Assembly: GCA_040882365.1 (NCBI GenBank)
Contig: JBBEBI010000037.1
Location: 9,419 to 73,418 of the forward strand
Direction of reading: 5' to 3'
DNA length: 64,000 nucleotides
DNA from: Anaerolineales bacterium
GTDB lineage: Bacteria; Chloroflexota; Anaerolineae; Anaerolineales; UBA11579
A program made the position numbers and the translations under genes. The notes beneath the pieces were generated by a model. That model had not been told where the DNA came from and did not search any database. It saw only the letters and a list, made by a program, of their open reading frames with translations. Of the stretch, positions 2,010 through 54,895 are shown piece by piece (within the stretch, counting starts at the first letter, position 1; the number at the start of each line of letters is the position of its first letter).

Positions 2010-2293
2010 TTTAGTTCCCTGTCGTTTTAGTGAGGAAATAGGCTCAGAAACATTAATTATAACCGCAGCGGGCGGTTGAAAATTGCCCTTGGGCTGCCCG
2101 GTTTTGCATCCCTGGCTGGGAGTTTAGTACGGTTGTACGGACAAACACGTCATGTATACTTTCTAAACAGTAAGTTTTGGGTAAGTAGGATAGAAGTACA
2201 TTGCCAGATACCAAGGGCCTAACATACTTATCAGTTTAGTTGAGAAAGGGTTCTTTGTCTGACGCGGATAGCACAACCTTTCTAAAACCTCGC

Positions 2294-4532: not shown

Positions 4533-4543
4533 CGAGGAGATCT

Positions 4544-7247: not shown

Positions 7248-7254
7248 TTTTCTG

Positions 7255-7977
7255 ATGAATACCTCTCTACAGGGTCGAGTGGCCTTTATCGCGGGCGCAG
7301 CCGGTGGATTGGGATCCGTGGCTTCGGCGGCTTTTGCCCAAGCCGGAGCCAATCTTGTCCTGCTGGGCCACAACGCCGAAAAGCTTGAGGTACTGGCTGC
7401 CAAGTTAAATCTGCCCTCCAGCCGCGTGTCAATCCATGCCGGAAATGCCTCATCGCAACAGGAAACGGAAGCGGCAGCCTCCACTGCTATTAAGAAATTT
7501 GGGCGGATCGACGTGTTAGTCAACCTCGTGGGTGGCTGGATCGGGGGGAAGGACATATTTGCCACCAGCAGAGAGGATATGGCTGGGATGATCGACCAAC
7601 ATCTGTTCGCCAGTTACACGCTGATAAAAACCTGTGTGCCTCACATGCTGGCGAACAAATGGGGGCGCGTGTTGGCTGTATCGTCGCCCAATGCCGGCCG
7701 GCCGCCCGGGAACAACTCGCCTTATGCCGTGGGCAAGGCTGCCATGGAAGCGCTGATGCTATCCCTGGCTCAGGAAGTCAGGGCTACGGGCGTGACCGCC
7801 AACCTCCTATTGGTCAAAATGATTGACACGGCCCATCAGAGGACGATTAATCCCAGCAAAGAAAACAAGAGTTGGACCAGCCCGGAAGAAATCTCTGCTA
7901 CACTTCTGCATCTTTGCAGCGAGGAAGCTGGCATGATCAATGGGGCCCGCCTCCCTCTCTATGGAGAACCCTACTGA
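7255..7977 (+). CDS. Short-chain dehydrogenase/reductase (SDR)
   Basis: N-terminal AFIAGAAGGLG glycine-rich NAD(P)-binding motif. Catalytic S...YAVGKAA (YxxxK). Confidence 0.85.
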   Translation: MNTSLQGRVAFIAGAAGGLGSVASAAFAQAGANLVLLGHNAEKLEVLAAKLNLPSSRVSIHAGNASSQQETEAAASTAIKKFGRIDVLVNLVGGWIGGKDIFATSREDMAGMIDQHLFASYTLIKTCVPHMLANKWGRVLAVSSPNAGRPPGNNSPYAVGKAAMEALMLSLAQEVRATGVTANLLLVKMIDTAHQRTINPSKENKSWTSPEEISATLLHLCSEEAGMINGARLPLYGEPY

Positions 7978-20492: not shown

Positions 20493-20494
20493 CG

Positions 20495-22075: not shown

Positions 22076-22077
22076 AA

Positions 22078-23586
22078 TTGATGAACCCTCCCAATTTATC
22101 CCGGCGCGAATTCCTTAAGCTGGCCGCGCTGGGCATGTTCACTTGGGCCGCCCCGTTCCCGATCCAAAAGCTGCGCTCGCCGGCGCTTTGCCCGCTGCCG
22201 CCTGCCAGTGGCTCTGTCCTCACGCCGGAACAGCTCCAGCGGTTGGCCGCCGCTGCGCGCACTTTCATTGCCCCCGATTTCGATGGCGCCCGCCAGGTGG
22301 CTCTCGATATCGATTTCATTGAAGGCCGTAATGAAGACGCCTCCACCATGTGCGGACCGCTGGCTATCGCCATCCTGCAGACCGCCGGATTGCTGGGTCC
22401 CTGGGCCAGCCGGCATGATTTCTGGCTGGTCGATCCACACGCCAACCCGCGCCCCTTTCAAGACACATTCCCTGAATCCCTTTACGATTGGTTCGAATTC
22501 GAAGAGTCAACATCCCAATTCGACCCGAATGCATTCCCGTTAGTGGCGGGTGACCTGATTTACCTGCAATCCGCGGCAGGCGATACCTACGAGCATGTGA
22601 TCTTGGTGAACCGCGTGGATGAGGCAGGCCGGGCCTACACCATATGCAATCTATTCATTGGCGACGGCACCATCATCGACGAACGCATGCTTTACGATCC
22701 ATCGCTACCTGGCAACGGACAACTTTACGATTGGACCAATCGCAGCCTAAGAAAAGAAATGGGCAACACGGGCAGCGGCGGCTATCACGTGTGGCGCGTC
22801 AAAGATGGCCGCAGTCTCGAATTCCCCACGGACACAAACAGCGTGCAATTGCGCGAGAGCCTTGACCAATTATTGCTGGCCGCCGCAGGGACTTGGTATG
22901 GCCGCATCCAGGAAATTGGCGGGCCTTTGCTCCACCAATTCAATCCTTATGCTTCCTTCCATCCCGCCTCTACCATTAAAGTGCCAGTGGCTTTGGCTTT
23001 CTATCATTGGCTTGAAGGGCAAGGTTTGACCGATTGGCACACTTATCTCAGCGAACATGGAGTCGGCGGACGCACTTACGCCCAATTGCTGGAAGCCATG
23101 ATTATCGAATCCGAAGAGGAAGCCACTGAAGTATTAGTGGGATTTCTGGGCAAAGCCTGGCTCGATGAGATATGGCTGAGTTGGGGCCTCACGCGGACCC
23201 ACGCCGATCCCCGCCGCAGCAGTGCCACAAATATCAGCATGGCATTCGAAAGCCTATACACGCGCAATTGGATCTCGCCGGCCAGTAAGGCTCATTTGCT
23301 GGCTCTGATGGAGACTTACACCGCAAACGATGATGCTCGGCTTGGTTTGCTGCGCCCGCGGCTGCCGGAAGACACAGTGATCTATAACAAGCGTGGCTCC
23401 CTTGTCGATTGGCCGCGAGTGGTAGGCGATAGCGGCGTCCTGCAACTGCCTGGAGCCGGAGCGCCGGCCTTCTTGTTCACCCTACACGGCATCGGCAAAG
23501 ACGCCGCTGGTTATGAAGAGCTCGAGGCGACGCTAAATCAGGCGATCGCGGTATTTGGCGATTTCTTAACGGCGCAAGCCACCTGA
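22078..23586 (+). CDS. Tat-exported two-domain protein: N-terminal Cys/His peptidase-like region plus C-terminal class-A beta-lactamase-like serine hydrolase
   Basis: Twin-arginine signal LSRREFLKLAALG. The N-terminal region has STMCGPLAIAIL...GDTYEHVILV, a C39/NlpC-like Cys...His arrangement (inference). The C-terminal part has ASTIKVPVALAF (SxxK) and a later NKRGS (KTG-like). Confidence 0.65.
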   Translation: MMNPPNLSRREFLKLAALGMFTWAAPFPIQKLRSPALCPLPPASGSVLTPEQLQRLAAAARTFIAPDFDGARQVALDIDFIEGRNEDASTMCGPLAIAILQTAGLLGPWASRHDFWLVDPHANPRPFQDTFPESLYDWFEFEESTSQFDPNAFPLVAGDLIYLQSAAGDTYEHVILVNRVDEAGRAYTICNLFIGDGTIIDERMLYDPSLPGNGQLYDWTNRSLRKEMGNTGSGGYHVWRVKDGRSLEFPTDTNSVQLRESLDQLLLAAAGTWYGRIQEIGGPLLHQFNPYASFHPASTIKVPVALAFYHWLEGQGLTDWHTYLSEHGVGGRTYAQLLEAMIIESEEEATEVLVGFLGKAWLDEIWLSWGLTRTHADPRRSSATNISMAFESLYTRNWISPASKAHLLALMETYTANDDARLGLLRPRLPEDTVIYNKRGSLVDWPRVVGDSGVLQLPGAGAPAFLFTLHGIGKDAAGYEELEATLNQAIAVFGDFLTAQAT

Positions 23587-23648
23587 ATGCCAGCTAAGAG
23601 AACTTGGCCAACCAGCACTTCTCAAATCGCCCCCATATAATCGTTGTG

Positions 23649-25193
23649 ATGTTTCGCTCAGCCAAGAGACGGCTTTGTGCCCTAATCCTCACCTCTGCCA
23701 TGCTGGTCTCGAGCTGCCTTCCAGCGGCAGTTGCTAGCATATCCCCCGTTCTCACCCAAACCGCCACTCCCAACCCGACGGCCACGCAACCCGTAATCAC
23801 TTCCACTCCGCTGCCTACGCGGCCCGCTTATGATCCCGGGCAACTTGTAGACTACACCGCCCAAACTGGAGATAACCTGATCGCCTTGGCCGCGCGCTTC
23901 AACACTACCATCGAAGACATTCTTGCCGCCAATCCCATCGTCCCGCAGACCGCCACCACGCTTCCGCCCGGCCTGCCTATGCAAATCCCCATCTATTACC
24001 GAGCATATTGGGGCACGTCCTATCAGATCATCCCCGACAGCCTCTTCGTCAACGGACCCGCGGCTGTGGATTTCGACACTCAGACTTTCGTGGATTCGCA
24101 GCCCGGATGGCTGAAGGATTACCGCGGCTATGCTTCCGGCAGCATGCGCACCGGTGCAGGTTTGGTGGACCTGGTGGCCACCAATTTCAGCGTTAGTCCG
24201 CGGCTATTGCTGGCGCTCCTGGAATTCCAGGCGGGCGCCCTCAGCCAGCCTGCTGTAGACCCGGCGAAGGCAACTTATCCGTTGGGATACGAAAACCGCG
24301 GCCATTCGGGCGTGTATTTACAATTGGTGTGGGCCGCCAATCAGCTCAACAATGGCTACTACGCCTGGCGCAAGGGGAAGCTCACCGAATTCGAAAGGCC
24401 CGACGAAACCATATACAGGCCCGATCCCTGGCAGAATGCCGCCACTGTTTCCTTGCAGCTTTTTTTCAACATCACGGAGCCTTTGCAAACCTTCGAAGCG
24501 GCCATCGGCCCCGAGGGTTTGGCACTGACTTTCGCCAACCTTTTCGGCGACCCCTGGGTCAGCGCCGTGGCTCACATCCCGGGCAGCTTAGTTCAACCCG
24601 AGTTCCGCCTGCCCTTTCCGCCCAGGCAGGTTTGGTCCCACACTGGTGGCCCTCATACCGGTTGGGGGCAGGGAGAACCGTTCGCCGCGCTGGACTTTGC
24701 CCCCGGGGAGCAACGCGGCTGCTTCGCCACAGGCCAGTGGGCTACTGCCGTTGCTGATGGATTGGTTGTGCGCACGGACGTTGGTGTGGTCGTGCTGGAT
24801 TTAGATGGCGATGGAGATGAGCGCACGGGCTGGGTGGTCTTCTATCTGCACTTGGCAAAGGAGGAAAAAGCCCGGGTAGGCGACCAACTGGCCGCCGGGC
24901 AGCCTGTCGGCCATCCCTCGTGCGAGGGCGGTTCTTCTACAGGCACACACGTGCATTTAGCCCGCAAATACAATGGCGAGTGGATCGAGGCGGCGGGCGC
25001 TTTGCCCTTTGTGATGGAAGGCTGGATTCCAGATGAAGGAACGGCGGCCTATTCCGGTACCCTGGCTCGTCAGGGATACCTGATCCGGGCTTGCGTGGGC
25101 TGTTCCGATGCGGCCAGCGCCATCACATCCCAGGCGCCTGCCGTGGCTCTGCCCACGCCGGCGCCGGAACCGACAGCAGAACCTGGTTCCTGA
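23649..25193 (+). CDS. LysM-domain M23-like metallopeptidase lipoprotein, paralog 3
   Basis: Signal/lipobox MFRSAKRRLCALILTSAMLVSSC. LysM is YTAQTGDNLIALAARFNTTIEDILAANP. Catalytic-type motifs are GGPHTGW...AALDFAP and GTHVHLARKYNGEWI. The track start is 23604. Confidence 0.8.
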   Translation: MFRSAKRRLCALILTSAMLVSSCLPAAVASISPVLTQTATPNPTATQPVITSTPLPTRPAYDPGQLVDYTAQTGDNLIALAARFNTTIEDILAANPIVPQTATTLPPGLPMQIPIYYRAYWGTSYQIIPDSLFVNGPAAVDFDTQTFVDSQPGWLKDYRGYASGSMRTGAGLVDLVATNFSVSPRLLLALLEFQAGALSQPAVDPAKATYPLGYENRGHSGVYLQLVWAANQLNNGYYAWRKGKLTEFERPDETIYRPDPWQNAATVSLQLFFNITEPLQTFEAAIGPEGLALTFANLFGDPWVSAVAHIPGSLVQPEFRLPFPPRQVWSHTGGPHTGWGQGEPFAALDFAPGEQRGCFATGQWATAVADGLVVRTDVGVVVLDLDGDGDERTGWVVFYLHLAKEEKARVGDQLAAGQPVGHPSCEGGSSTGTHVHLARKYNGEWIEAAGALPFVMEGWIPDEGTAAYSGTLARQGYLIRACVGCSDAASAITSQAPAVALPTPAPEPTAEPGS

Positions 25194-41699: not shown

Positions 41700-41725
41700 A
41701 CAAGAGCCCCTGACGGGGCTCTTGT
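41700..41725. terminator. Hairpin between convergent degV-like and pdp genes
   Basis: ACAAGAGCCCC-tgac-GGGGCTCTTGT is a perfect 11-bp stem. TTATTT follows on the + strand and an A/T-rich run on the - strand. Confidence 0.55.
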
Positions 41726-43029
41726 TATTTAATGATTCCGTAGAACAACGGCAGGGGTTTCACTTTTTTGCTGCTCCATTGATGAGCGGCCAGCGCGCGT
41801 CCGCGCGCCGCCTCGAGTTTGCCTTTGTCGTTGGCGTGCAAGGTGAACAACGGCTCGCTTTTAGCCAATTTATCCCCAACTTTGTGATGCACCACAATGC
41901 CCACGGCGTGATCGATCGGATCCCCCTTCTTGGCGCGGCCCGCGCCCAGCTCGACCGAGGTCTCGCCGATCTCTTTGGCGTCGACGCGCCTAAGATAACC
42001 CGCGCGAGGAGCGGGGATGAGTTCGATGAAAGGGGCGCGGGGGAACTTATCCGGATCATCCACGTAGCTCACATCGCCGCCTTGGGCAACCACCAAAGCA
42101 CGGAAACGCTGGAAGGCGGAGCCGTTCTGGAGCTGGGCAGCGGCTAGCTTGCGGGCGGCTGCCAATGTTTTTTCCTTCTCGCCTAAGACGATGAGATGGG
42201 CAGCAACTTCCACAGCATGGCGGCGAAAGTCTTCAGGGCCACCGCCCTGCAAGGTCAGGACGGCCTCTTTGACTTCGAGAGCATTGCCCACAGCGTGGCC
42301 GAGCGGCTGGTTCATGTCTGAAAGCAGGGCTACGGCCTTGCGGCTGGCCAACCTAGCAATCTTCACCATAATCTTTGCCAGGGCGCGGGCATCATCAAGA
42401 TTCTTCATGAAGGCGCCTACGCCCACTTTGACATCCAGCACCATGCGTTGAGCGCCTGCGGCGATCTTCTTGCTCATGACTGAAGAAGCGATTAGAGGTA
42501 ACGAATCGATGGTACCGGTCACATCGCGCAGCGCATACAATTTTCCATCGGCAGGCGCCAGGTCCCCAGTTTGACCGGTTAGCACCAGTCCCACTTCGCG
42601 TAATTGTCTTAGGAATTCTTCGGTAGTCAGGTCGGTGCGGAAACCTGGGATCGATTCCATCTTGTCCAAGGTTCCGCCACTGAAACCCAGGCCGTGGCCG
42701 GACATCTTTCCGACGCGCAAACCGCAAGCAGCAACCAGGGGCTCGACCACCAGGGTGGTCTTATCACCCACACCACCGGTGGAATGCTTATCGAGCGCCC
42801 GATCCACTACACCCGTCAGATCCAGCATGTCGCCGGATTCAGCCATGGCCAAAGTCAGTTCCATGGTCTCGCGGTCGGTCATGCCGTTGAGCAAGACGGC
42901 CATGGCCCAGGCGGACACCTGGTAATCCTGGATCTCGCCGCGCGTGAATCCTTCCACAAAGAAGCGGATTTCGTCGCGGGTCAGTTCTTGCCCTTGGCGC
43001 TTCTTAACGATGATGTCAACGGCACGCAT
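41725..43029 (-). CDS. pdp: Pyrimidine-nucleoside (thymidine) phosphorylase
   Basis: IIVKKRQGQELTRDEIRFFV...DKHSTGGVGDKTT...KMSGHGLGFSGGTLDK. Confidence 0.9.
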   Translation of the reverse strand: MRAVDIIVKKRQGQELTRDEIRFFVEGFTRGEIQDYQVSAWAMAVLLNGMTDRETMELTLAMAESGDMLDLTGVVDRALDKHSTGGVGDKTTLVVEPLVAACGLRVGKMSGHGLGFSGGTLDKMESIPGFRTDLTTEEFLRQLREVGLVLTGQTGDLAPADGKLYALRDVTGTIDSLPLIASSVMSKKIAAGAQRMVLDVKVGVGAFMKNLDDARALAKIMVKIARLASRKAVALLSDMNQPLGHAVGNALEVKEAVLTLQGGGPEDFRRHAVEVAAHLIVLGEKEKTLAAARKLAAAQLQNGSAFQRFRALVVAQGGDVSYVDDPDKFPRAPFIELIPAPRAGYLRRVDAKEIGETSVELGAGRAKKGDPIDHAVGIVVHHKVGDKLAKSEPLFTLHANDKGKLEAARGRALAAHQWSSKKVKPLPLFYGIIK

Positions 43030-43179: not shown

Positions 43180-46100
43180 ATGGCCATCTTGCTCACTAAA
43201 GTGCGTCCGCCGCAACGGCGCAAAGATGTCCTGCGGCGGGTGCGCTTGATCGACATCCTCCACCAAAATCTGCACCGCAAGCTAACGTTTGTCTCGGCTC
43301 CTGCAGGTTACGGCAAAACCACCCTTTTGGTGGATTTTGCCGCGGATGTGGACGCCATCGTGTGTTGGTACCGCATCAGCCCGGAAGACAACGACCTGGT
43401 CCAATTCGTCGCACACTTGATTGCCGCCTTCCAACAACAGGTAGCCAACTTCGGCAAGGAACTGGAAGAGAAGCTCAACTCCATGGGTGGCGCGCCTGAC
43501 GCCGCCACCTTGGCCGTCGATTTCATCAACGAGGTCGAGCAAAAGGTAGACGACTTTTCCTTGCTGGTGTTGGACGACTATCACCTGGCGGGGGAGAACC
43601 AGCAGATCGTGGATTTCGTCGAGAATTTCCTCGAGCACCTGCCTGACAGGTTGCGCATACTGATTGGCTCGCGCAGCGTGTATGGCATCCCCACGGCGAA
43701 CTTGTACGTTCGCGACGAACTAGTGACTATCAGCGCGGAAGAGCTTCGCTTCCGGGCCGAAGAGCTGCAAAAGCTGGTGCTGCAGAATTACCGCATCCGC
43801 CTGAGCGACGAGCAAGCTGATGAGTTCGCCAAGCGGGCCGATGGCTGGATCATCGCCATCCTGCTGGCCCTGCGCACCATGGAGAACGGCACCCTGCCCA
43901 AGCTTAGCGGGGGCATCCAGCAGGTGTATGAGTATCTGGCAGAAGAAGTCGTCAGCCGGCAAAGTGAGCACTTGCGGGATTTCATGCTGGCCACTTCCAT
44001 CCTGGGGGATTTCAACGAGGCGTTGTGCAATTACCTGCTGGAGCGCAAGGATTCGGCATCTTCCCTGCAAGCGCTGGAGGACCGCAACCTGTTCGTCAGC
44101 CGCACCGAAATGACGGAAGGCCCCAGCTATCGCTACCATCAACTTTTTTCAGAGTTCCTGCAAGATTATTTTGGCCGCACGCAAAAGCCGCGGCTGGCAG
44201 CGCTGCACCACCGGGCCGCCGAGTGGCATCGCGGCCGCAAGGAATGGGAAGCTGCGATCGACCACAAGCTGGCGGCGGGCGATAAGGAAAAGGCGGCGGC
44301 GTGGATCGACAAGGTGGCCAAGGAATATTATGTGGCGGGAAGACAGGCCCTCTTGGCGCGCTGGGTGACAGCCTTGGGCACGGACCCCAACATGCAAAAG
44401 GAAGCGCCACGCCTTTTGTTGTACCATGCGAAGTTCCTAGTAAATCAAAGCAGGTTCGCAGAGAGTCTAAGGCCACTGGATATCGCGAATCCAGCATTTA
44501 AACATGAAGGGGATTTCGACTTACTAGCGAATGTGGCCATCACCCGGGGTATGGTGGCGAGGTTTACTGGAGAATATAAGCAAGCTATCAATTTGGCCCA
44601 GCAAGCCCAGGATTTGCTAAACAAGAAGTCGAAGCGGAGACGACATTCGCTACAGTGGTATCAAGCGGAGCGCCTTAAGGGCCTCCCTACGTATTTTCTT
44701 GGGGACATCCGAGGTGCAATCAAATATTTGAAGGCAGCGGTAGCGGGATTCCGCCGCTTGGGATCTGTGGGTCGAGGGAATCACAAATTTGGGAACTTAT
44801 ATGATTTGGCCGAGACCCTGAACGATTTGGGATTGGTATATATAAATAACGGCCAACTGCTTGACGCGCAACAAGCATTTCAAGAAACCCTGGATATCCA
44901 TATCAACCTGCGCAGCAATTTGGGCGCGTTAGCGTCTGCTCGCAATAACATCGCCTATCTCCATCATCAGATTGGACAATACGCAGAAGCGTGGCATGAA
45001 TACTCTTTGGCGTTAGAACATGCTCGGGCCGCAAATCTAATTCGTGTCCAAGTCGCCATATTAAATGGGCGTGGTGATTTGCTGCTAGACGTTGGTGAAA
45101 AAGAGGAAGCCGAAAGAAGCTTTCAGCAAGCACACTCACTCCCCGGGGAACCCACCGAACTCGTCGGTACATTTGCAGGTCTCGCCCGCGTTGAGCGCCT
45201 TAGAGGACACTTTAGCGAATCAATGAATTGGCTGCGAAGAGGGGCCAGTTTTCGAGGGGGCGCGATGGATGAAACCGATTACGCATTAGAAATGGGAAAT
45301 GTCTATGCGGGCATGGGACAACTCGATCTAGCGCTAAGAGAATTCGAAAAAGCTATGGCTGGCTGGCCCAAGCAGAAAGCCCCCAAGCAATCCCAGGTGA
45401 TGGCCGCATTTTTGGCCGCCAAGACCCATCTTCAAAAGCAACAAGCCCAAAAAGCAGAAAAGCTATTGAATAAGGCCCTTGAGGGCGCAGCCCGCTTGGG
45501 TTACGATCAGTTTCTCGTCGCCGCAGCCAGATGGAGCAACAATTTTCTATCCCAGTTCGTACAGACTAACTCATCCGAGCAAATAAAGGCTTTAGCTGAA
45601 CGAGCGGCCAATTTTATTCCTGGCAAAGCAGCCCTAGAACGAAAATCGTCCGAACCGACGGTAAGGTCAATTCACATCGAAGTACAGGCCTTTGGTCCGG
45701 GAGAAATCCGTCTAGATGGGGAATTGCTTTCAATGAGTGTTTGGCGATCTAGCCGTGCCAGGGCCCTTTTCTTTTATCTCCTAGATCGCGGAAGGGCACG
45801 CAAGGATACTATTGGATTGGACTTTTGGCCTGATTTCAGTTCGGGAAAGATCAGCAGCAATTTTCACGCCACCTTATGGCGAGTACGGCAGGCTCTGGGC
45901 TTCAAGGAAGCCATCGTCTATGAGCAAGATCATTACAGCCTTCACCCCTCGTTCGGGATCTGGTACGACGTATGGGAATTTGAAAGCTATTTGAAAAAAG
46001 CTGGCGAAGAACAACTTTCTAAACGTGCCAGGGGCGAGTTGCTAAAGCAAGCCCTGGACTTGTACAAACAGTCCTACTTGCAGGACATATTCATGGAATG

Positions 46101-46413
46101 GACGGATCGCAGGCGGGAAGAGCTGCGCGCCCTTTATGTCGATGCACTACTCGATCTGGCTTCCATGGAAGCCGAAAGCAAACACTATCGGGAAGCCAAG
46201 CTACTTTATGAGAAAATCCTGGGTGTCGACCCCTATCGTGACGAGGTACATCTATCTTTAATGAAATGCCTAGCGCTATCTGGCGCCCCTTCGGCAGCCA
46301 TCGCCCATTTCAAGCAATACAGAGCCTTACTGCGCAAGGAGCTGAATGCAGAACCCTTGCGGGAGCTGCGTGAGTATTACAATCAGTTATCGATAAAGGC
46401 ACAGACACCTTAA
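43180..46413 (+). CDS. STAND-class regulator: MalT-type P-loop NTPase, TPR-like helical repeats, and a C-terminal SARP module (OmpR-type wHTH plus BTAD)
   Basis: The N terminus LTKVRPPQRRKDVLRRVRLIDIL...FVSAPAGYGKTTLL...WYRISPEDNDLVQF is MalT-like. The C-terminal ~250 aa have IEVQAFGPGEIRLDG...RARALFFYLL...FHATLWRVRQAL (wHTH), then YDVWEFE...ALDLYKQSYLQD...W...RREELRALYVDALLDLA...YEKILGVDPYRDEVHLSLMKCLALSG...AIAHFKQYRALLRKELNAEP (BTAD). Confidence 0.8.
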   Translation: MAILLTKVRPPQRRKDVLRRVRLIDILHQNLHRKLTFVSAPAGYGKTTLLVDFAADVDAIVCWYRISPEDNDLVQFVAHLIAAFQQQVANFGKELEEKLNSMGGAPDAATLAVDFINEVEQKVDDFSLLVLDDYHLAGENQQIVDFVENFLEHLPDRLRILIGSRSVYGIPTANLYVRDELVTISAEELRFRAEELQKLVLQNYRIRLSDEQADEFAKRADGWIIAILLALRTMENGTLPKLSGGIQQVYEYLAEEVVSRQSEHLRDFMLATSILGDFNEALCNYLLERKDSASSLQALEDRNLFVSRTEMTEGPSYRYHQLFSEFLQDYFGRTQKPRLAALHHRAAEWHRGRKEWEAAIDHKLAAGDKEKAAAWIDKVAKEYYVAGRQALLARWVTALGTDPNMQKEAPRLLLYHAKFLVNQSRFAESLRPLDIANPAFKHEGDFDLLANVAITRGMVARFTGEYKQAINLAQQAQDLLNKKSKRRRHSLQWYQAERLKGLPTYFLGDIRGAIKYLKAAVAGFRRLGSVGRGNHKFGNLYDLAETLNDLGLVYINNGQLLDAQQAFQETLDIHINLRSNLGALASARNNIAYLHHQIGQYAEAWHEYSLALEHARAANLIRVQVAILNGRGDLLLDVGEKEEAERSFQQAHSLPGEPTELVGTFAGLARVERLRGHFSESMNWLRRGASFRGGAMDETDYALEMGNVYAGMGQLDLALREFEKAMAGWPKQKAPKQSQVMAAFLAAKTHLQKQQAQKAEKLLNKALEGAARLGYDQFLVAAARWSNNFLSQFVQTNSSEQIKALAERAANFIPGKAALERKSSEPTVRSIHIEVQAFGPGEIRLDGELLSMSVWRSSRARALFFYLLDRGRARKDTIGLDFWPDFSSGKISSNFHATLWRVRQALGFKEAIVYEQDHYSLHPSFGIWYDVWEFESYLKKAGEEQLSKRARGELLKQALDLYKQSYLQDIFMEWTDRRREELRALYVDALLDLASMEAESKHYREAKLLYEKILGVDPYRDEVHLSLMKCLALSGAPSAAIAHFKQYRALLRKELNAEPLRELREYYNQLSIKAQTP

Positions 46414-46469
46414 GGAGGCTCTATCGCGGAGGTAGATTGATTGTCTATTAGCGAATCATTGATGCCAGC

Positions 46470-46499
46470 AAGGCTGCTCAAACGGGTGGCCTTTTTTTG
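46470..46499 (+). terminator. Weak candidate terminator after the STAND/SARP gene
   Basis: AAGGCTGC...GTGGCCTT is an imperfect stem with two G-U pairs and an 8-nt loop. TTTTTTGT follows. Confidence 0.3.
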
Positions 46500-46546
46500 T
46501 CTCAGGGCATGCAGCTTGCTCAGAGATACGTTCATAGGGCGTCTCC

Positions 46547-46552
46547 TAGAAT
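46547..46552 (+). promoter_or_regulatory. Candidate -10 element (TAGAAT) for the small-peptide genes
   Basis: TAGAAT lies ~40 nt upstream of ATG 46591. There is no good -35 at 17-18 bp, which would fit an activator-dependent promoter. Pattern only. Confidence 0.2.
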
Positions 46553-46590
46553 GCGCCCACTAACCTAACTATGTTTTATGGAGGATTCAC

Positions 46591-46782
46591 ATGTTCAATA
46601 GCACAAAAGTTCAGTTCAACCAACCCTGCGGCGGCGGCGTGGGCACCGGCCCTACCTTCGCCCAGCCCTGCGGTGGCGGCGTAGGCACCGGCCCTAGCTT
46701 TGCGCAGCCCTGCGGTGGCGGCGTGGGCACCGGCCCTAGCTTTGCGCAGCCCTGCGGTGGCGGCGTGGGCACCGACCATTAA
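46591..46782 (+). CDS. 63-aa Gly/Cys/Pro-rich tandem-repeat peptide (candidate multi-core RiPP precursor)
   Basis: MFNSTKVQFN + QPCGGGVGTGPTFA + QPCGGGVGTGPSFA + QPCGGGVGTGPSFA + QPCGGGVGTDH*. GGAGGA (46580-46585) lies 5 nt before the ATG. Five of the six nucleotide differences between copies 1 and 2 are synonymous third positions in this frame, and the sixth gives Thr/Ser. Confidence 0.6.
   Translation: MFNSTKVQFNQPCGGGVGTGPTFAQPCGGGVGTGPSFAQPCGGGVGTGPSFAQPCGGGVGTDH
46621..46782. repeat. 42-bp direct tandem repeat, ~3.8 copies
   Basis: Units are at 46621-46662, 46663-46704, 46705-46746 and 46747-46782 (last copy diverged and truncated). The consensus is CAGCCCTGCGGTGGCGGCGTGGGCACCGGCCCTAGCTTTGCG. 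Copies 2 and 3 differ at one base, and copy 4 matches copy 3 for 28 nt. Confidence 0.95.
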
Positions 46783-46828
46783 GTTGACCCATATTTTGTT
46801 TGATCCGATTCTGAATAAGGAGCTTGAA

Positions 46829-47044
46829 ATGTCTAAACTCAAATTGAACGCCATTGCTACCCAGGCTTTGCTGGATAACGAATTCAAGACCGCCCTCCTG
46901 AACGGGCAGGTGCAGGACCGACTAAGCGCCTTCCAATTGAATGACGAGGAAGTGCGGGCGGTGATGTCCATCCAGGCTATGGATCTGGACCAGTTTATCC
47001 GCCACCTGAGCGGGCTCATCCAACCGTCGGCGTCTGCCGCCTGA
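46829..47044 (+). CDS. 71-aa NHLP/Nif11-leader-like small protein
   Basis: MSKLKLNAIATQALLDNEFKTALLNGQVQDRLSAFQLNDEEVRAVMSIQAMDLDQFIRHLSGLIQPSASAA. AAGGAG (46817-46822) lies 6 nt before the ATG. The xALLDxEFKxALLxG...FxLxxEExxAv pattern resembles nitrile-hydratase-leader-type (NHLP clan) small proteins as I recall them. Confidence 0.6.
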   Translation: MSKLKLNAIATQALLDNEFKTALLNGQVQDRLSAFQLNDEEVRAVMSIQAMDLDQFIRHLSGLIQPSASAA

Positions 47045-47169
47045 GGCTGCTGCGGCGGCTGACAAGCTTAGAACCACAGACCATTACGGTCTGGCATATT
47101 TGAGGGCGAGGGTAAATGTGCTTTATCCTCTCGCCGTCATAAAGGCTTGCCAGCCTGAATAGAGGTAAA

Positions 47170-50100
47170 TTGGCCCGCGGGCCAGAAAGCGACTTGAACT
47201 CGAGGATGCTAGTAGAATCGTTCAACGAAGAGCAGGCGCTGAATGGCAATGGACGCTTTGCAGGCAGGGCCGTGAAGGCAGGTAACCTGGGTGCTGAAGG
47301 CGAGCACACAGAAGAGCTGGCTGCCCTGGCTATTGCGGGCGCCAGCATCCTCTCCAGCCTGGAATTCGAAAAAGTCCTCCAAATCGTCGCCCGGCAGCTG
47401 ACTAACCTGCTGGATGTGCCGATCTGCATCCTCGCCGATTCCTCGCCGAACCCTGGAAAGATCAAGCCTTACCTAAAGTTCGTTAATCTGCAAATCACCA
47501 GGTTGCCGCGTAAATACGAAGTCACGTCTTTATCCGAAAACCTGGCGCTCACCGCAGTAGTTGAGAAAGCCAAACCCCTGCAAATGGGGCTGGACGAGCC
47601 CGGGCTCTCCACAAAACAGAAAACCGCTTTTAAGAAGGCAGGCGTCTCCACTATTCTGCTATTGCCACTGATGGCCCAAAGCAAAACGCTGGGCCTGGTG
47701 GAATTGCAGGAGACCCGAGGCGTGCGCCGCTTCACCGATCGAGAGATTTATCTGGCCCAGACTCTTTGCCATCAGGCCGCGGCCGCCATTGAGAATGCGC
47801 GGCTATTCGAGGCCACCCGCCGCCAGCTGCAGGAGTTGAGCCTTCTCCACCAGGTCTCTCTTGCCAGCACCGAAGCCACCACTGAAACTGAACTTATTGA
47901 ACGCACCACCCAACTTATCCGCGAAAACCTGTATCCCGACAACTTCGGCGTGTTGCTATTGGACCAGGATGGCTCCCATCTCAATATTCACCCTTCCTAC
48001 CAGGCAGGAAAACCGCTGAACGCGCCGACTATCCTATTGGGCCAAGGCATCACAGGGCAAGTGGCTTCGCTGGGCATGCCTTTACGCGTCGGCGACATCA
48101 GAGCGGAAGCGAATTACCTGGGTTACGATCAAGATACCCTTTCCGAATTATGTGTGCCCATGAAGATTGGAGAGCGCCTGGTAGGTGTTATTAACGCTGA
48201 GAGTCGCGAACTCAATCACTTCACTGAGAAGGATGAGCGGTTGCTCCTGACTCTAGCCGGGCAACTAGCCAGCGGGATCGAGAGGCTGCGCAACGCGGCC
48301 GCCGAACGCCGCCGCGGCAAGCAACTCAGCATCCTAAATAAACTCACGGGGGAAATGAGCGGTGTGCTGGACCGCGATCGCCTGTTCAAGGTGGTCGTGG
48401 AGCGCTTGAACAAAGAAATGAATTATGTATCCACAGACATTTCTATTGTGGATGAGGAAGCACACGAATATGTGACGGCCGCGGTGAGTGGCACCTTTGC
48501 CTCCCTGGTTCCGGCGGGCGGTTATCGGCAGCCCTTTGGGATGGGCCTGCTGGACCGCGCGGCCATCACCGCCGAGGTGGTGGTGGCGAACAATGTCCAC
48601 GACCGCCCAGAATACATTCTGGTGCCCGGGCATGAAATGATCAATTCGGAACTGATTATTCCTATAAAGATCTACAAGCGCGTGGTTGCGCTGCTCAACG
48701 TCGAAAGCAACGAATTGAACGCCTTTGACCAGCATGAGGTCGGCGCGTTAAGCACGCTGTGCGAACAGATATCGATCGCACTGGAGGGAATCAGCCTATT
48801 TGACTCCACACGAAGGCAATTGCAGGAATTGACGGTATTGCACGCCATCACGCATGCAGCCGTAAATGCCAAGAGCGAGGACGAGCTTCTGGAACGGGCC
48901 ACCGAGATCATCGGCGACAGTTTATATCCGGACCAGTTCGGGTTCCTGATGCTTGACGACAATTCCCAGGTGCTACTCGTCAACCGCAGTTACCGGGGAA
49001 TCAGCGCCGAAATGAAGCGGCGGAGAGTGCCTCTTTCTCATGGTGTTGCCGGCCGAGTTGCTGCAACCGGAACACCCTGGCGCATTCCGAATGTCCTCAT
49101 AGAGCCGAACTACCTGCACGTTAGCCCCAACATGCTTTCTGAGTTGTGCGTACCCATCCTGGGGAATGCCAACCGGGTTCTCGGGGTCATCAATGCAGAA
49201 AGCGCCCAGTTGGACGCGTTTTCGGAAAAGGATTTGCGATTACTGAACACAATTGCCGGCCAGTTGGGGACCGCAATCGAGAAATTCCGCTTGTTCGAAT
49301 CCGAGCGCGTGCAGCGCGAGCAAGCCGAGACGCTGCGCGAAGTGGCTGCCATCTTGAGCAGCGAAACGGAAAGCTCGAAAGTGCTCGACCTGATTCTGGA
49401 GCAACTGAAGCGAGTGGTACCTTTTGACAGCGCTTCCATTCAAATCATTAAGGGTGAAAATCTGAGCATACGAGCCATAGCGGGATCGATGGAAGCGAGC
49501 GCTCTCGGCTATGAAATCCCCATCAGGGACGACCGATTTGCGCATCCTTTGCTTTACGAGCACCGCACAGTAGTCTACGAAGACATTAGCGATCATCCAG
49601 ACTGGCTGCAGGCTCCGGGGGCAACAAACGTAAAGTCCTGGATTGGCGCTCCACTGATAGTAGGTGGGGAATGCGTAGGCGTACTAACGGTGGACGGCTA
49701 TAAAGCCAACCAGTTTAGCGCGGCGGACGCACAATTGGTGTCTGCCTTTGCCATCCATGCCGGTATTTCCCTTGAGAACGCGCGCCTGTTCGAGGAAGCC
49801 CAGGAAGCCTATGTGCAGACGGTCAGTGCGCTGGCCAGCGCCATCGATGTGCGCGACAGCTACACCAGCGGCCACAGCCAGCGGTTGGCGGACTTGGCCG
49901 TGATGACGGGCGAAATGATGGAATGCAGCGATGAAGAGCTGGTGGACATCCGCTGGGGTGCTCTGCTGCACGACATCGGCAAGATCGGCGTGCCCGATGA
50001 GATCCTACGGAAACCGGGCATATTGGAAGCCCACGAGGAAGAGATCATGCGCCGGCACCCGGAAATAGGCTCACACATAGTGGCCGGAGTGAAGAATCTT

Positions 50101-50379
50101 TCCGGGGTGGCGCCCATTATTCGAGCGCACCAGGAACATTACGACGGCAAGGGCTACCCGGATGGATTGCGCAAAGATGCCATTCCCAAAACCGCCCGTA
50201 TCATTGCCGTGGCCGATGCCTATGTGGCCATGACGGATGAACGCGTGTACCGTAAATCACGTAGCCACGAGGAAGCGGTGGCAGAACTCAGGCGCTGCAG
50301 CGGTTCCCAGTTCGACCCCAAGGTGGTAAAGGCCTTCCTCAAGGCCATCGAAGAAAGAATCAACCCCGCTATAAAATAA
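47170..50379 (+). CDS. Multi-GAF (about 4-5 GAF domains) HD-GYP c-di-GMP phosphodiesterase
   Basis: Repeated GAF blocks carry recurring ...SELCVP(M/I)...GVINAES..LN.F(T/S)EKD..LL.T(L/I)AGQL...IE...LFE... motifs. The C-terminal part has SGHSQRLADLA...GALLHDIGKIGVPDEIL...HQEHYDGKGYPDGL...FDPKVV. The start is uncertain (TTG 47170 or ATG 47206). Confidence 0.85.
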   Translation: MARGPESDLNSRMLVESFNEEQALNGNGRFAGRAVKAGNLGAEGEHTEELAALAIAGASILSSLEFEKVLQIVARQLTNLLDVPICILADSSPNPGKIKPYLKFVNLQITRLPRKYEVTSLSENLALTAVVEKAKPLQMGLDEPGLSTKQKTAFKKAGVSTILLLPLMAQSKTLGLVELQETRGVRRFTDREIYLAQTLCHQAAAAIENARLFEATRRQLQELSLLHQVSLASTEATTETELIERTTQLIRENLYPDNFGVLLLDQDGSHLNIHPSYQAGKPLNAPTILLGQGITGQVASLGMPLRVGDIRAEANYLGYDQDTLSELCVPMKIGERLVGVINAESRELNHFTEKDERLLLTLAGQLASGIERLRNAAAERRRGKQLSILNKLTGEMSGVLDRDRLFKVVVERLNKEMNYVSTDISIVDEEAHEYVTAAVSGTFASLVPAGGYRQPFGMGLLDRAAITAEVVVANNVHDRPEYILVPGHEMINSELIIPIKIYKRVVALLNVESNELNAFDQHEVGALSTLCEQISIALEGISLFDSTRRQLQELTVLHAITHAAVNAKSEDELLERATEIIGDSLYPDQFGFLMLDDNSQVLLVNRSYRGISAEMKRRRVPLSHGVAGRVAATGTPWRIPNVLIEPNYLHVSPNMLSELCVPILGNANRVLGVINAESAQLDAFSEKDLRLLNTIAGQLGTAIEKFRLFESERVQREQAETLREVAAILSSETESSKVLDLILEQLKRVVPFDSASIQIIKGENLSIRAIAGSMEASALGYEIPIRDDRFAHPLLYEHRTVVYEDISDHPDWLQAPGATNVKSWIGAPLIVGGECVGVLTVDGYKANQFSAADAQLVSAFAIHAGISLENARLFEEAQEAYVQTVSALASAIDVRDSYTSGHSQRLADLAVMTGEMMECSDEELVDIRWGALLHDIGKIGVPDEILRKPGILEAHEEEIMRRHPEIGSHIVAGVKNLSGVAPIIRAHQEHYDGKGYPDGLRKDAIPKTARIIAVADAYVAMTDERVYRKSRSHEEAVAELRRCSGSQFDPKVVKAFLKAIEERINPAIK

Positions 50380-51388
50380 GCATTGCATCGCCAAAGGAAT
50401 AAAAGCGGTAGCTTTCGGCGATCGCCTCCCTATAGGTTGCCAAAATCAGTTCGCGCCCTGCGAACGCGCTGACCAGCATTAGCAAGGTGGACCGCGGCAA
50501 ATGAAAATTAGTCAGCAAGGCGTCCACTGCACCGAATTTGTATCCGGGGATAATAAAGAGATCGGTGCGGCCCTCATAGGGCGCAACCTTTCCGGCGTCA
50601 CCCGCGCGGGCGGCGGTTTCCAGCACGCGCACCGAGGTGGTGCCTACGGCGATCACCCGGCCACCGGCGGCCCGGGTCTCATTCACAAGATTGGCAGCTT
50701 CCATTGAGAACTGACACCATTCCGTATGAATTCTATGCTCCCGGGGATCATCCTCATTTACGGGAGCAAAGGTATCCAGTCCTATATGTAAGGTCAGACC
50801 GGCAAAGCGCACCCCTTTGGATTGGATTTCATCCATTAGAGCGCGCCTGAAATGCAACCCGGCAGTCGGCGCGGCCGCAGAACCCGGATCATGCGCGTAG
50901 ACGGTTTGATAGCGTTCAGGATCCACCAAGGCGGTGTGGATGTAAGGCGGCAGGGGCACCGAGCCTATGCACTCCAGCTCTTTATCCATCGAGCGATCGA
51001 AAACGATGAGGCGCTGAGCCCCGCCAAGATCCTGATCGATGGTGGCAGTAGTTCCGCCTTTCAGTTGCACTTGCTTGCCGACGCCCAACCCTTTTCCCCC
51101 GACCAAGGCTTTCCAACGGCGCTCATCGAGCCGCTCCAACAGGAGCAGTTCGATCCTGCCGCCACTGGGCAACTTACGGCCAAACAAGCGCGCCGGCACA
51201 ACTCGGCTGCGATTTATAACTAGCAAATCACCGGGTTTCAAGTAATCGGGCAATTGATGAAAGGTGCCGTGAGTGCGCCGGCCAGTGCGGCGATCCAACA
51301 CCAGCAATCGGGAGGCATCCCGAGGCTCAACAGGCTCCTGGGCAATTTGGCCCGGCGGGAGTTCGTAATCGAAATCAGACGTCTTCAA
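50369..51388 (-). CDS. queA: S-adenosylmethionine:tRNA ribosyltransferase-isomerase
   Basis: MKTSDFDYELPPGQIAQEPVEPRDASRLLVL...APTAGLHF...LHIGLDTF...VGTTSVR. Confidence 0.9.
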   Translation of the reverse strand: MKTSDFDYELPPGQIAQEPVEPRDASRLLVLDRRTGRRTHGTFHQLPDYLKPGDLLVINRSRVVPARLFGRKLPSGGRIELLLLERLDERRWKALVGGKGLGVGKQVQLKGGTTATIDQDLGGAQRLIVFDRSMDKELECIGSVPLPPYIHTALVDPERYQTVYAHDPGSAAAPTAGLHFRRALMDEIQSKGVRFAGLTLHIGLDTFAPVNEDDPREHRIHTEWCQFSMEAANLVNETRAAGGRVIAVGTTSVRVLETAARAGDAGKVAPYEGRTDLFIIPGYKFGAVDALLTNFHLPRSTLLMLVSAFAGRELILATYREAIAESYRFYSFGDAMLIL

Positions 51389-53545: not shown

Positions 53546-54895
53546 TTGGCGCGCCTGGAAGCCAAATATGCGCGACTGGTGATAGAGAAGGGTTTTCTGG
53601 AGCGAGCGGTCAAGGACCTGAATTTCCACAACAATGCCCACGACGGCATTGTGTACACCGACATCCAGGACCGCATCATTTATGCCAATCCTTATTTCCT
53701 GGGAATGATGGGGGTGAAAGAAAAAAGCGAATTGGTGAACAAGCCGTTCCCCAATTATGTGTGGAAGAACCAACGCGAAGCCGAGCGGCTATTTAGCGAT
53801 ATCAAGAAAGACGGCTTTGTGCGCGAACGCGAAATGTCCTTGAGCAACAAGGATGGACAGCCGGTATTCGCCATGTGTTCGGCAGTGGCCAATAAGGACG
53901 AAGACGGCAACATCGTGGGCACCGAGCTCATGTTCTGCAACATCACCAGCAAGCGCACCTTCCAGGCCGAATTGGTCGAACAGCACGCCTTGCTAGATGC
54001 CATGCTGCAAAGCACCCCCGACCCGATCCTGATCCTGACCTCGGCGCTGGACATTAACCGGCTGAACCCGGCGGCCAGCGCCCTGTTCGGCCTCGAGACC
54101 TACAAAGCGCGGCAGCCTTTGGCCGCCGTGTTTACCAAGGCTGGCCTGGCGCCGGAGATCGTTCAAAAAATGGAAGCGCGCTTCGTGGCGGAACAGGCCT
54201 TCGAACTGGAAATAACATTGCACGGGGAGCACTTTGAATTCCACGCAGCCCCGCTGCGGTCGACGCAGAAGGGTTGGGTGTGCAGTTTGCACAACATCAC
54301 GGTGCGCAAGCAGACCCAGGAAATGTTGCAAAGGCATGCCTTCCACGATGTGCTGACCCAGCTCCCCAACCGAGCCTACTTCCGCGATCATTTGCAGCGC
54401 GCCCGCCTGCGTAGTAAGGGCGAACCCGCCTACCGCTTCGCCACGCTGTTCATCGATATGGACAGCCTCAAGTCGATCAACGACAAGTGGGGGCATGACG
54501 CGGGAGACCAGGTGCTGATGCAATTCGCGCGCCGATTGGAGAGCAGCATCCGGCCCGGCGACCTGGCTGCGCGGCTTGGCGGGGACGAATTCGCCGTGTT
54601 CGTCGACGGCGTGGCCGACGAGGATAGAGCGCGCCAGGTGGCGACGCGCATCCGCGACGCCCTGTCGCTGCCTTTCAAGCTGCGCGGCGAAGCCGAATTG
54701 CACACCACCGCCAGCATCGGCATCGCGTTAGCAGGAGCGTTGACCGCGGATGTGGATGCGTTGTTGCGCAACGCCGACCAGGCCATGTACCGCGTCAAGC
54801 AGCGCGGCGGTAATGGATTTGAGATGTTCGGAGAAGAGCTCCTGGCCGCATCCCCCCAATTAGCCCAAATCATGAAACCGAAAAGGACGCGGTAA
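53546..54895 (+). CDS. PAS-PAS-GGDEF diguanylate cyclase
   Basis: Two PAS-like regions, then HDVLTQLPNRAYF...FIDMDSLKSINDKWGHDAGD...RPGDLAARLGGDEFAV. The GGDEF motif is intact and an RxxD I-site lies 5 residues upstream. TTG 53546 is the first conventional in-frame start, so the true 5' end is uncertain. Confidence 0.85.
   Translation: MARLEAKYARLVIEKGFLERAVKDLNFHNNAHDGIVYTDIQDRIIYANPYFLGMMGVKEKSELVNKPFPNYVWKNQREAERLFSDIKKDGFVREREMSLSNKDGQPVFAMCSAVANKDEDGNIVGTELMFCNITSKRTFQAELVEQHALLDAMLQSTPDPILILTSALDINRLNPAASALFGLETYKARQPLAAVFTKAGLAPEIVQKMEARFVAEQAFELEITLHGEHFEFHAAPLRSTQKGWVCSLHNITVRKQTQEMLQRHAFHDVLTQLPNRAYFRDHLQRARLRSKGEPAYRFATLFIDMDSLKSINDKWGHDAGDQVLMQFARRLESSIRPGDLAARLGGDEFAVFVDGVADEDRARQVATRIRDALSLPFKLRGEAELHTTASIGIALAGALTADVDALLRNADQAMYRVKQRGGNGFEMFGEELLAASPQLAQIMKPKRTR

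Follow-up and report, generated by a model that had tools for sequence, protein, structure and literature searches.

Organization of the locus

We analysed a block of four genes in a 64 kb stretch of DNA (hereafter, the window) from the metagenome-assembled genome of an uncultured Anaerolineales bacterium (Chloroflexota; window proteins MEX1248063-66). In order, the block encodes a STAND-type transcription activator with a SARP domain, a peptide built of short tandem repeats (REP), a 71-residue small protein and a predicted HD-GYP phosphodiesterase of cyclic di-GMP (c-di-GMP). The analysis was made in silico and covered gene content, conservation, promoter architecture, coding constraint and family assignments. 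The block looks like an undescribed relative of the AfsR/AfsS switch of Streptomyces rather than an antibiotic-like peptide cluster. The original prediction, made from the letters of the DNA, had given the order regulator, terminator, TAGAAT -10 hexamer, repeat peptide, 71-residue gene and HD-GYP gene, and all of these elements were recovered at the positions given. The features of the block are the following.

43180-46413, + strand: STAND-type transcription activator, 1077 amino acids, from domain matches
Regulator residues ~1-370: MalT-like NTPase/NOD, with the Walker A motif GYGKTT
Regulator residues ~371-830: TPR-rich sensor region
Regulator residues ~831-1077: complete SARP domain (winged helix and BTA)
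46470-46503, + strand: intrinsic-terminator-like hairpin and T run, closing the regulator transcript
46518-46537, + strand: putative operator at the -35 position, a pair of direct repeats of 12-bp period
46518-46525: operator repeat 1, GCTCAGAG
46530-46537: operator repeat 2, GTTCATAG
46547-46552, + strand: -10 hexamer TAGAAT, 8-9 bp past the 3' repeat
46580-46584, + strand: Shine-Dalgarno sequence of REP, GGAGG
46591-46782, + strand: REP, 63 amino acids, a 42-bp unit repeated 3.7 times with 93% matches
46829-47044, + strand: all-helical small protein of 71 amino acids, Shine-Dalgarno sequence AAGGAG
47170-50379, + strand: five GAF domains and a predicted HD-GYP c-di-GMP phosphodiesterase

Conservation of the cassette

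The four-gene arrangement is not a chance association, as it recurs in the 80 loci that we fetched (a partly redundant set, gathered from homolog loci, by a metagenome scan and by further look-ups). Directly upstream of the small genes, on the same strand, stands the regulator gene in 61 of the 63 loci with at least 1.2 kb of upstream sequence, and an HD-GYP gene lies downstream in 39 of the 45 with at least 2.5 kb of downstream sequence. Loci L001-L026, which surround close homologs of the 71-residue protein, have all four genes in unchanged order. The linkage extends to loci in which this protein is 37-57% identical, and the pairing with the regulator persists at ~30% identity, in the PF14407-type loci L080-L082. 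In some loci the place of the HD-GYP gene is taken by another gene, encoding an MscS-cNMP channel in L058, a GAF histidine kinase in L081 and an M78 peptidase in L080 and L082; since the regulator is kept in these loci, it is the invariant partner of the small genes, and the HD-GYP enzyme is the usual output.

A comparison of the interval between pdp and queA in relatives had been proposed along with the original prediction. We found that the small genes and both flanking signalling genes are conserved as a set; conservation of the small genes with neither regulator, which would have counted against the original prediction, was not seen. The arrangement is not uncommon, as had been supposed, but widespread in Chloroflexota. 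Literature searches on NHLP proteins with HD-GYP or with quorum sensing and TPR, on Franean1_4349, and on SARP regulators with signalling peptides in Chloroflexi returned no account of the cassette, and the public label of the 71-residue and related genes is 'hypothetical protein'.

The regulator and the HD-GYP enzyme

The N-terminus of the regulator matches the NOD of MalT (PDB 8bob, E-value 1.8e-35; NF003420, 9e-78), its middle part matches TPR_12 (2.7e-21), and its C-terminus matches BTAD (PF03704, 5e-18). In a SARP domain, by definition, a BTA domain comes after an OmpR-type winged-helix DNA-binding domain. A profile of the last 260 residues of the regulator orthologs aligned end to end with residues 36-282 of AfsR (8hvr, 3.5e-21) and also matched residues 10-254 of EmbR (2fez, 1e-6). 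As these alignments to the SARP domains of AfsR and EmbR run over the whole length, the SARP domain of the regulator is complete, its winged-helix part included. The public annotation (MEX1248064.1) reads 'BTAD domain-containing putative transcriptional regulator'. With its SARP, NOD and TPR modules the protein belongs to the large SARPs, in the order NOD-TPR-SARP. The TPR region in the middle is the fastest-evolving part of the protein, with a mean identity among orthologs of 52%, compared with 77-78% for the NOD and 65-66% for the SARP domain. No RRNPP receptor family was present among the Pfam and NCBIfam matches of the locus. An anti-phage STAND system had no support, the sole PADLOC match being marginal (E-value 5e-4).

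An insertion sequence with an rve integrase has truncated the gene in L005 (7107-9570), leaving a BTAD-only remnant; the repeat peptide (four units), the 71-residue gene and the HD-GYP gene are all intact there despite the broken regulator. In L081 (4267-7989) the regulator gene is broken into three open reading frames (ORFs), and the ORF of the repeat peptide shifts frame in the middle of the array. The frame breaks of L081 are most likely indel errors of a long-read assembly and not true pseudogenes.

The assignment of the last gene to the HD-GYP phosphodiesterases comes from both domain and motifs: the predicted protein matches HD_5/HD-GYP models (PF13487, E-value 5e-38; NF053512, 1.4e-46), and HDIGK and HxxxYDGKGYP are legible in its translation. 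Its TTG start at 47170 is uncertain, with ortholog alignments beginning at residues 5-43. Across the loci the HD-GYP partners carry variable sensors (GAF, REC-GAF, PAS and PDZ).

A conserved SARP-box-like promoter

All aligned orthologs have a hairpin and T run at this site after the regulator gene, and the stem shows compensatory changes. The aligned spacers between regulator and peptide genes then read, in order, terminator, TGCTCATAG-N3-CGTTCATAGG, 8-9 nt, TAnnAT, Shine-Dalgarno sequence and ATG. No recognisable -35 element was seen at this promoter. In the loci aligned or displayed, a TAnnnT hexamer stands equally distant from the repeats, and both repeats and their 12-bp period are kept where the 71-residue protein has diverged to 37-57% identity. 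When the operator motif is relaxed to two hexamers of the form T[CT]A[TG]A[GAC] spaced 12 bp apart, nearly every locus that holds the spacer has a single match, at this position; one off-target match was seen among the fetched loci. The most distant loci have another repeat sequence (TTTATTAAGGA, twice) in an unchanged two-repeat layout.

Known SARP targets are direct repeats with a period of 11 or 22 bp, the 3' copy of which lies 8 bp away from the -10 element; two SARP protomers sit side by side on these repeats, replacing recognition of a -35 element (PMC10936776). Judged by its sequence, the promoter here matches this rule in layout, except for its period of 12 bp. The original prediction had tied the peptide transcript to the SARP regulator; because a conserved SARP-box-like direct repeat lies exactly at the promoter, such control is very probable, and the regulator appears to switch on the small genes together with the HD-GYP gene. 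No terminator-like site lies between the 71-residue gene and the HD-GYP gene, and in the distant loci inspected (L060, L063, L072, L073 and L078) the gap between the corresponding genes is 19-47 nt. This argues for a single operon of peptide, 71-residue protein and HD-GYP enzyme. Both this operon and the binding of the regulator to the repeats are what we infer from the DNA.

The repeat peptide

REP consists of MFNSTKVQFN followed by four copies of QPCGGGVGT with 5-residue spacers. Its orthologs are present in nearly all close loci and contain 2-5 copies of an invariant core, P-x-G-G-G-[V/I]-G, within a nonamer that across genomes reads [Q/H/Y/R]-P-x-GGG-[V/I]-G-[T/S/G/H]. Among the REP repeats the proportion of synonymous differences (pS) is 0.54 and that of nonsynonymous differences (pN) is 0.11. 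The resulting ratio of 0.21 indicates that REP is translated and under purifying selection, and the value of pS indicates that the DNA of the units is old. The nonamer is uniform in all units of one genome, with differing codons (the Leu codons of the units in L009, for example, are TTG, CTC, CTG and CTG), and it varies between genomes; the 5-residue spacers vary freely. Uniformity of the nonamer despite codon differences suggests that selection maintains several identical copies of a genome-specific short epitope.

Several other explanations of the repeats did not hold. The original prediction had entertained a Gly/Cys peptide active in metal or redox chemistry; in the orthologs, however, the Cys site is occupied by C, V, L, M, I, R or T, and it is P-x-GGG-[V/I]-G that is invariant. 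An array of DNA-binding sites was rejected: the ORF is conserved along with its Shine-Dalgarno sequence, reading frame and stop codon, the period is always a multiple of 3, and pN/pS is low. Recent gene conversion as the origin of the identical units was rejected because of the high synonymous divergence between them. The unit GGG[V/I]GTGP also resembles the GTP-binding signature of FtsZ and tubulin, GGGTGTG; homology or nucleotide binding would be conjecture.

More distant loci hold a different form of the peptide. In L055-L078 and L082 the REP slot is occupied by an ORF of ~50 codons with a strong Shine-Dalgarno sequence. Its product begins with an n-region (often MF(N/T)xK, as in REP), continues through a hydrophobic segment and P-x-x-A-x-A, and closes with a tail of only 9-11 residues, for instance GPGTGGTGS, NPTGGGWGS, EPSWGGVGG and PPLGGGIGGG. 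The 15-residue Kyte-Doolittle mean reaches 2.2-3.1 in these ORFs, compared with a maximum of 0.36 in the REP of the window. The distant slot ORF thus reads as a signal-peptide-like sequence followed by a single unit. Judging from the common MF(N/T)xK N-terminus and P-x-GGG-x-G tail, the secreted-looking and the repeat forms are homologous. Further forms are a 20-residue single-unit peptide without signal (L080), a peptide of about six units (PPIGGGSGT, in L081) and the P0058-type peptides, an intermediate form with a short hydrophobic N-terminal stretch and four units. Peptides P0058-P0063 share a conserved 37-residue N-terminal extension ahead of four P-x-GGG-x-G units. In L027 (2-1146) a peptide of this type adjoins genes for an FkbM-family methyltransferase and a membrane protein, without a SARP box; the contigs of L027 and L028 are only ~1 kb long.

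The pair of REP and 71-residue genes is tandemly duplicated in one sub-clade (L008, L015, L032, L033 and L040-L044), with up to three copies of the 71-residue gene in L008 and L033. These loci have one SARP box only, and their first REP slot has decayed to a stop-containing remnant. In L067, L072, L073 and L078 the last Gly codons of the small ORF and its stop (GGA GGA TAA and similar) form the Shine-Dalgarno sequence of the NHLP-like gene, which begins 15-30 nt past it. Such sharing of Gly codons and Shine-Dalgarno sequence points to tight translational coupling of the two genes.

The 71-residue protein

The 71-residue protein matched NF038399 ('Os1348 family NHLP clan') with an E-value of 3e-4 and 20.8 bits, under the cutoff of 40, and PF14407 (Frankia_peptide) with an E-value of 8e-3; the models of NHLP and Nif11 proper gave no match. 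Among 1.84 billion representative proteins, a profile search picked up 118 relatives, which have a common N-terminal domain of ~65 residues and variable tails of 0-60 residues. PF14407 is matched by 65 of 127 aligned family members, and some members reach the cutoff of NF038399. The family profile weakly matches 6lk7, deposited as 'nitrile hydratase, alpha chain' (E-value 0.008), and the nitrile hydratase (NHase) alpha chain 4ob1 (0.024). PF14407, NHase_alpha, Nif11, ComX and DurB are united in the 'LigA-like domain' group of ECOD (PMC12353581). AlphaFold2, run on a deep alignment, gave a five-helix bundle with a predicted local distance difference test score (pLDDT) of 81 and the last 6 residues disordered; a Foldseek search of this model against the PDB gave nothing significant. 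From these profile matches we regard the protein as a divergent member of the PF14407/NHLP clan.

The 57 close homologs are all 69-81 residues long, 55 of them 69-71, and their named sources are all Anaerolineales or Chloroflexi genomes. Orthologs are 63-98% identical and conserved over the whole length, with about the last 6 residues variable. In L007, the closest relative, identity is 98% for the 71-residue protein, 84% for the HD-GYP enzyme, 79% for the regulator and 78-79% for the housekeeping flanks; the 71-residue gene is thus the most constrained of the block. The protein, which ends in ...RHLSGLIQPSASAA, has no GG or GA cleavage motif, and in this clade it has no variable core rich in Cys, Ser or Thr. 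Its fixed length, its rank as the best-conserved gene and the lack of both GG motif and variable core count against the view, taken up in the original prediction, that it is the precursor of a ribosomally synthesised and post-translationally modified peptide (RiPP).

Some members of the family are joined to other domains or genes. In P0119 the NHLP-like domain is fused to the receiver domain of a response regulator, which is hard to square with a pure leader role, and in P0157 it is fused to Peptidase_M78 (ImmA/IrrE-like). A separate M78-like gene lies ~10 nt past the NHLP-like gene in L080 (8299-8784) and L082 (8286-8789). The M78 fusion and adjacency suggest that in those lineages the small protein either is under proteolytic control or exerts it. 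Locus L061 (5733-9876) has a polyprenyl-synthase-like gene (6420-7451; PF00348, E-value 1e-20, far under every NCBIfam cutoff) between the NHLP-like and HD-GYP genes; the NHLP-like product there ends in ...RWMYATEAAY, and the arrangement recalls ComX/ComQ. The fusions and the strict conservation suggest that in the clade of the window the 71-residue protein is a protein-interaction or regulatory module and not a precursor. It may serve either the regulator or the phosphodiesterase, as an adaptor or a modulator.

A model for the cassette and its alternatives

We propose that the block is a self-contained regulatory cassette, in which the peptide is the small partner of the regulator and c-di-GMP hydrolysis is the output; in our estimate this reading has an even chance of being right. 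Among the roles that the original prediction offered for the peptide, that of a 'signal tied to c-di-GMP turnover' is the best supported. In the proposed mechanism the STAND regulator would be transcribed alone, with its transcript stopped at the terminator. A dimer or oligomer of the regulator would bind the two GTTCATAG repeats, substituting for a -35 element, and would activate the operon of repeat peptide, 71-residue LigA/NHLP-like protein and multi-GAF HD-GYP enzyme, so that c-di-GMP falls. REP would be the cognate small partner of the regulator, with its nonamers serving as short linear epitopes that bind the regulator, most probably through the fast-evolving TPR region. Multivalent binding of this kind would stabilise the oligomer on DNA and thereby give positive feedback, as AfsS does for AfsR. 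In distant relatives the cell would receive a single unit from the exterior, in the manner of a pheromone. In the clade of the window the epitope would have been internalised and multiplied: since REP of this clade lacks the hydrophobic segment and has tandem units, it would act inside the cell.

A number of points weigh against this model. At 12 bp, the operator period differs from that of characterised SARP boxes (11 or 22 bp), and the order of modules is NOD-TPR-SARP here and SARP-NOD-TPR in AfsR. The unit P-x-GGG-V/I-G, compared by eye, is unlike the AfsS motif, T-x2-D-N-H-M-P-x2-P-A; the parallel with AfsS would therefore be one of logic and not of homology. An intact REP is lacking in locus L031, which means that not every locus needs the peptide. 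Nor does the explanation assign a role to the 71-residue protein, whose gene is the best conserved of the block. The signal-peptide forms suggest an ancestral extracellular action. Contact between peptide and regulator, finally, is something we infer by analogy, and a signal of co-evolution between the unit and the TPR region depended on the phylogeny control used: the NOD gave a partial rho of 0.39-0.42, whereas with queA the signal vanished (rho 0.03, p 0.37).

Among the alternatives, both small genes might be RiPP precursors, with REP as a multi-core substrate, the 71-residue protein as a leader (maybe acting in trans), and maturases and exporter elsewhere in the genome. The family of the 71-residue protein is indeed catalogued as precursors (PF14407, NF038399 'NHLP clan' and the ECOD LigA-like group with Nif11, ComX and NHase alpha; PMC12353581), its distant relatives have variable C-terminal tails of 10-60 residues, and identical tandem units are typical of multi-core precursors. 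To these may be added the M78 peptidase that is the next gene in some relatives and fused in P0157, the ComQ/ComX-like position of the divergent polyprenyl synthase in L061, and the FkbM methyltransferase beside a REP-like peptide in L027. We nevertheless consider RiPP precursors unlikely. The original prediction had stated that no transporter, protease or tailoring enzyme is present in the block; Pfam matches among the main ORFs of the window and the annotation of the syntenic L001 gave no transporter, leader peptidase or RiPP maturase, nor any radical-SAM, YcaO, LanM, ATP-grasp, C39-ABC or similar protein, and the precomputed annotation of nine relatives' loci gave no maturase, transporter or defence system. 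Thus a maturase, leader peptidase and ABC exporter are missing from the 64 kb and from the annotated or scanned loci, and the constant partners of the small genes are regulators, not enzymes. The 71-residue protein here, without cleavage site or variable core, is conserved beyond its housekeeping neighbours, and the only conserved modifiable side chain of the REP unit is at the T/S/G/H position, the Cys not being conserved. A true cell-cell pheromone in the clade of the window too, with REP released, cut to four nonapeptides and sensed outside the cell or after import by RRNPP logic, seems to us equally improbable. The distant slot ORFs do have the anatomy of a pro-pheromone next to a TPR regulator, and the units are alike within a genome and unlike between genomes, as pherotypes are. 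In the Rpf system, moreover, HD-GYP output follows a diffusible signal factor (DSF). REP of the window, however, has no hydrophobic segment, no conserved cleavage signature surrounds its units, whose spacers vary, and neither the locus nor the window holds an exporter, processing protease or oligopeptide permease.

It is also conceivable that the peptide, the 71-residue protein or both act on the phosphodiesterase, for instance as ligands of the GAF array that gate c-di-GMP hydrolysis, with the regulator only transcribing them. An HD-GYP enzyme with variable sensors is the commonest third partner of the small genes, with which it would be co-transcribed in the predicted operon, and the conservation of the 71-residue protein is that expected of a protein-protein partner. 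Yet the small pair stays with the regulator in loci where the HD-GYP gene is replaced, and unit identity does not follow GAF divergence (rho 0.10), so we hold the probability of such a target to be low. Far less probable still is that REP is a cis-acting upstream ORF, working as a Gly/Pro arrest or attenuation peptide and, in relatives, as a secretion monitor like SecM or MifM. Its position immediately before the regulated genes, the conserved Pro/Gly motif at its C-terminus, the joining of a signal or transmembrane segment to a C-terminal motif in the distant forms, as in arrest monitors, and the last Gly codons that form the Shine-Dalgarno sequence of the next gene in some loci would all fit. 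But four identical units with a co-varying x position are unexpected of an arrest motif, the downstream genes are not genes of secretion or glycine metabolism, and there is no stable or conserved RNA structure over the downstream Shine-Dalgarno sequence (fold z-scores ~0, gaps of 15-152 nt). We found no Rfam element, and with these z-scores an attenuator or an RNA that sequesters the Shine-Dalgarno sequence had no support.

The cassette model, in which REP is the partner of the regulator, can be widened. It is possible, if rather doubtful, that a peptide-signalling family exists across Chloroflexota, in which a Gly-rich nonapeptide (x-P-x-GGG-V/I-G-x) is the direct ligand of a MalT-NOD/TPR/SARP receptor controlling c-di-GMP turnover, and which has switched repeatedly between two forms, a pheromone secreted as a single unit and a co-activator with multiple copies that acts within the cell. 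If true, this would be a class of quorum-sensing receptors unrelated to RRNPP, it would supply an evolutionary logic for AfsS-type repeat proteins, and it would make the PF14407/NHLP-like 'leader-only' protein a regulatory partner, not a RiPP precursor.

Genomic surroundings

The housekeeping flanks that had been predicted, pdp upstream and queA downstream, were recovered by domain matches.

41725-43029, - strand: thymidine phosphorylase, flank of the block
50369-51388, - strand: queA, flank of the block

The 3' ends of the convergent HD-GYP (+) and queA (-) genes overlap by 11 bp (50369-50379). A gene for a PAS-GGDEF diguanylate cyclase (53546-54895) lies four genes beyond the HD-GYP gene, with queA, a small ORF, ruvB and upp between. 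The cyclase gene keeps this position in most relatives and is missing from L026. The proximity of the two genes places a maker and a breaker of c-di-GMP in one neighbourhood. Two histidine-kinase genes, one with GAF, followed by a gene for an OmpR-type response regulator, occupy positions 2240-5227; together with the cassette and the GGDEF gene they make the window unusually rich in signalling. Paralogous genes encoding LysM and an M23 peptidase (18978-20492 and 23604-25193) have between them a 577-residue ORF without a Pfam match and a beta-lactamase-like gene, and the region 18978-25193 is probably a cell-wall remodelling cluster. No paralogs of the cassette genes were found within the window.

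Comparison with known systems

The RRNPP systems (PlcR-PapR, NprR-NprX, Rap-Phr and AimR-AimP) also have a cytoplasmic TPR regulator beside a small ORF, and in the distant loci, though only there, the small ORF has their layout, in which a short mature peptide stands at the C-terminus behind a signal sequence. The regulator here would likewise control the promoter of the peptide gene and so allow feedback. The receptor here, however, is a STAND NTPase with a SARP domain and not a helix-turn-helix (HTH)-TPR protein, and there is no homology between the two. Moreover, REP of the window lacks a signal sequence (an export signal is present only in L055-L078 and L082), no oligopeptide permease or processing protease was found in the locus or window, and the peptide is rich in Gly and, in this clade, built of tandem repeats.

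The helical N-terminal domain, common to the 71-residue protein and its 118 relatives, is the point of resemblance to NHLP, Nif11, ComX and Frankia_peptide proteins. In the clade of the window the 71-residue protein differs from NHLP-type precursors in that core, GG motif, maturase and exporter are missing within the loci and window scanned, in the strong purifying selection on it over its whole length, and in having a transcription factor as constant neighbour. Members of PF14407 and the 'NHLP clan' are thus not automatically RiPP precursors, and genome-mining pipelines would mislabel the locus.

MalT, the regulator of the E. coli maltose regulon, has a homologous NTPase/NOD and winged-helix arm followed by a TPR-like sensor, and the logic of oligomerisation driven by ligand and ATP may be shared. 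The DNA-binding domain is a SARP domain here and a LuxR-type HTH in MalT, and the presumed ligand here is a gene-encoded peptide, in place of maltotriose. In RpfC/RpfG, of the DSF signalling system of Xanthomonas, signal input is also coupled to c-di-GMP hydrolysis by an HD-GYP enzyme. The coupling in our cassette would be transcriptional, by operon membership, and the HD-GYP enzyme has GAF sensors and not a receiver domain, although some relatives are REC-GAF-HD-GYP proteins.

The closest system understood by experiment is that of AfsR and AfsS, and the parallel with it is one of logic. Neither this parallel nor the signal-peptide-like form of the small ORF in distant relatives figured in the original prediction. 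AfsR (SARP-NOD-TPR) directly activates the adjacent afsS gene via the afs box (PMC10832544), and AfsS is a protein of 63 amino acids with three 12-residue repeats (PMC2267785). AfsS-like proteins are only 17-38% identical and all have 2-5 repeats; the repeats of AfsS are additively required for binding to AfsR, and this binding raises the promoter occupancy of AfsR (PMC10832544). In both systems the regulator is built of SARP, NOD and TPR modules, the small gene adjoins the regulator gene, and two direct repeats ~8 bp from the -10 element stand in place of the -35 element of the promoter. The small product has 63 amino acids in both, consists of 2-5 short tandem repeats and diverges strongly between species; with its four units beside a large-SARP gene, REP is AfsS-like in this sense. 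The NOD here is MalT-like, the box has a period of 12 bp and not 11, the operon also contains the PF14407/NHLP-like protein and the HD-GYP enzyme, the phylum is Chloroflexota, and there are relatives in which the small gene encodes a signal peptide and a single unit.

In Streptomyces, antibiotic production is gated by large SARP/STAND regulators for which the activating signals are still unknown (bioRxiv 10.64898/2026.09.02.748808). The pairing of such a regulator and a small repeat peptide occurs here in a second, phylogenetically remote lineage, and a peptide of 9 residues is a candidate ligand that can be tested directly; the clear unit epitope and the secreted single-unit version strengthen the case for it. 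The cassette would link such a switch to c-di-GMP, which suggests a way in which the filamentous Chloroflexota of sludge and sediments might control lifestyle transitions. What is new relative to the known pairs of a large SARP and a small repeat target is the inverted order of the receptor, the different repeat, the two extra operon members and the link to a secreted peptide.

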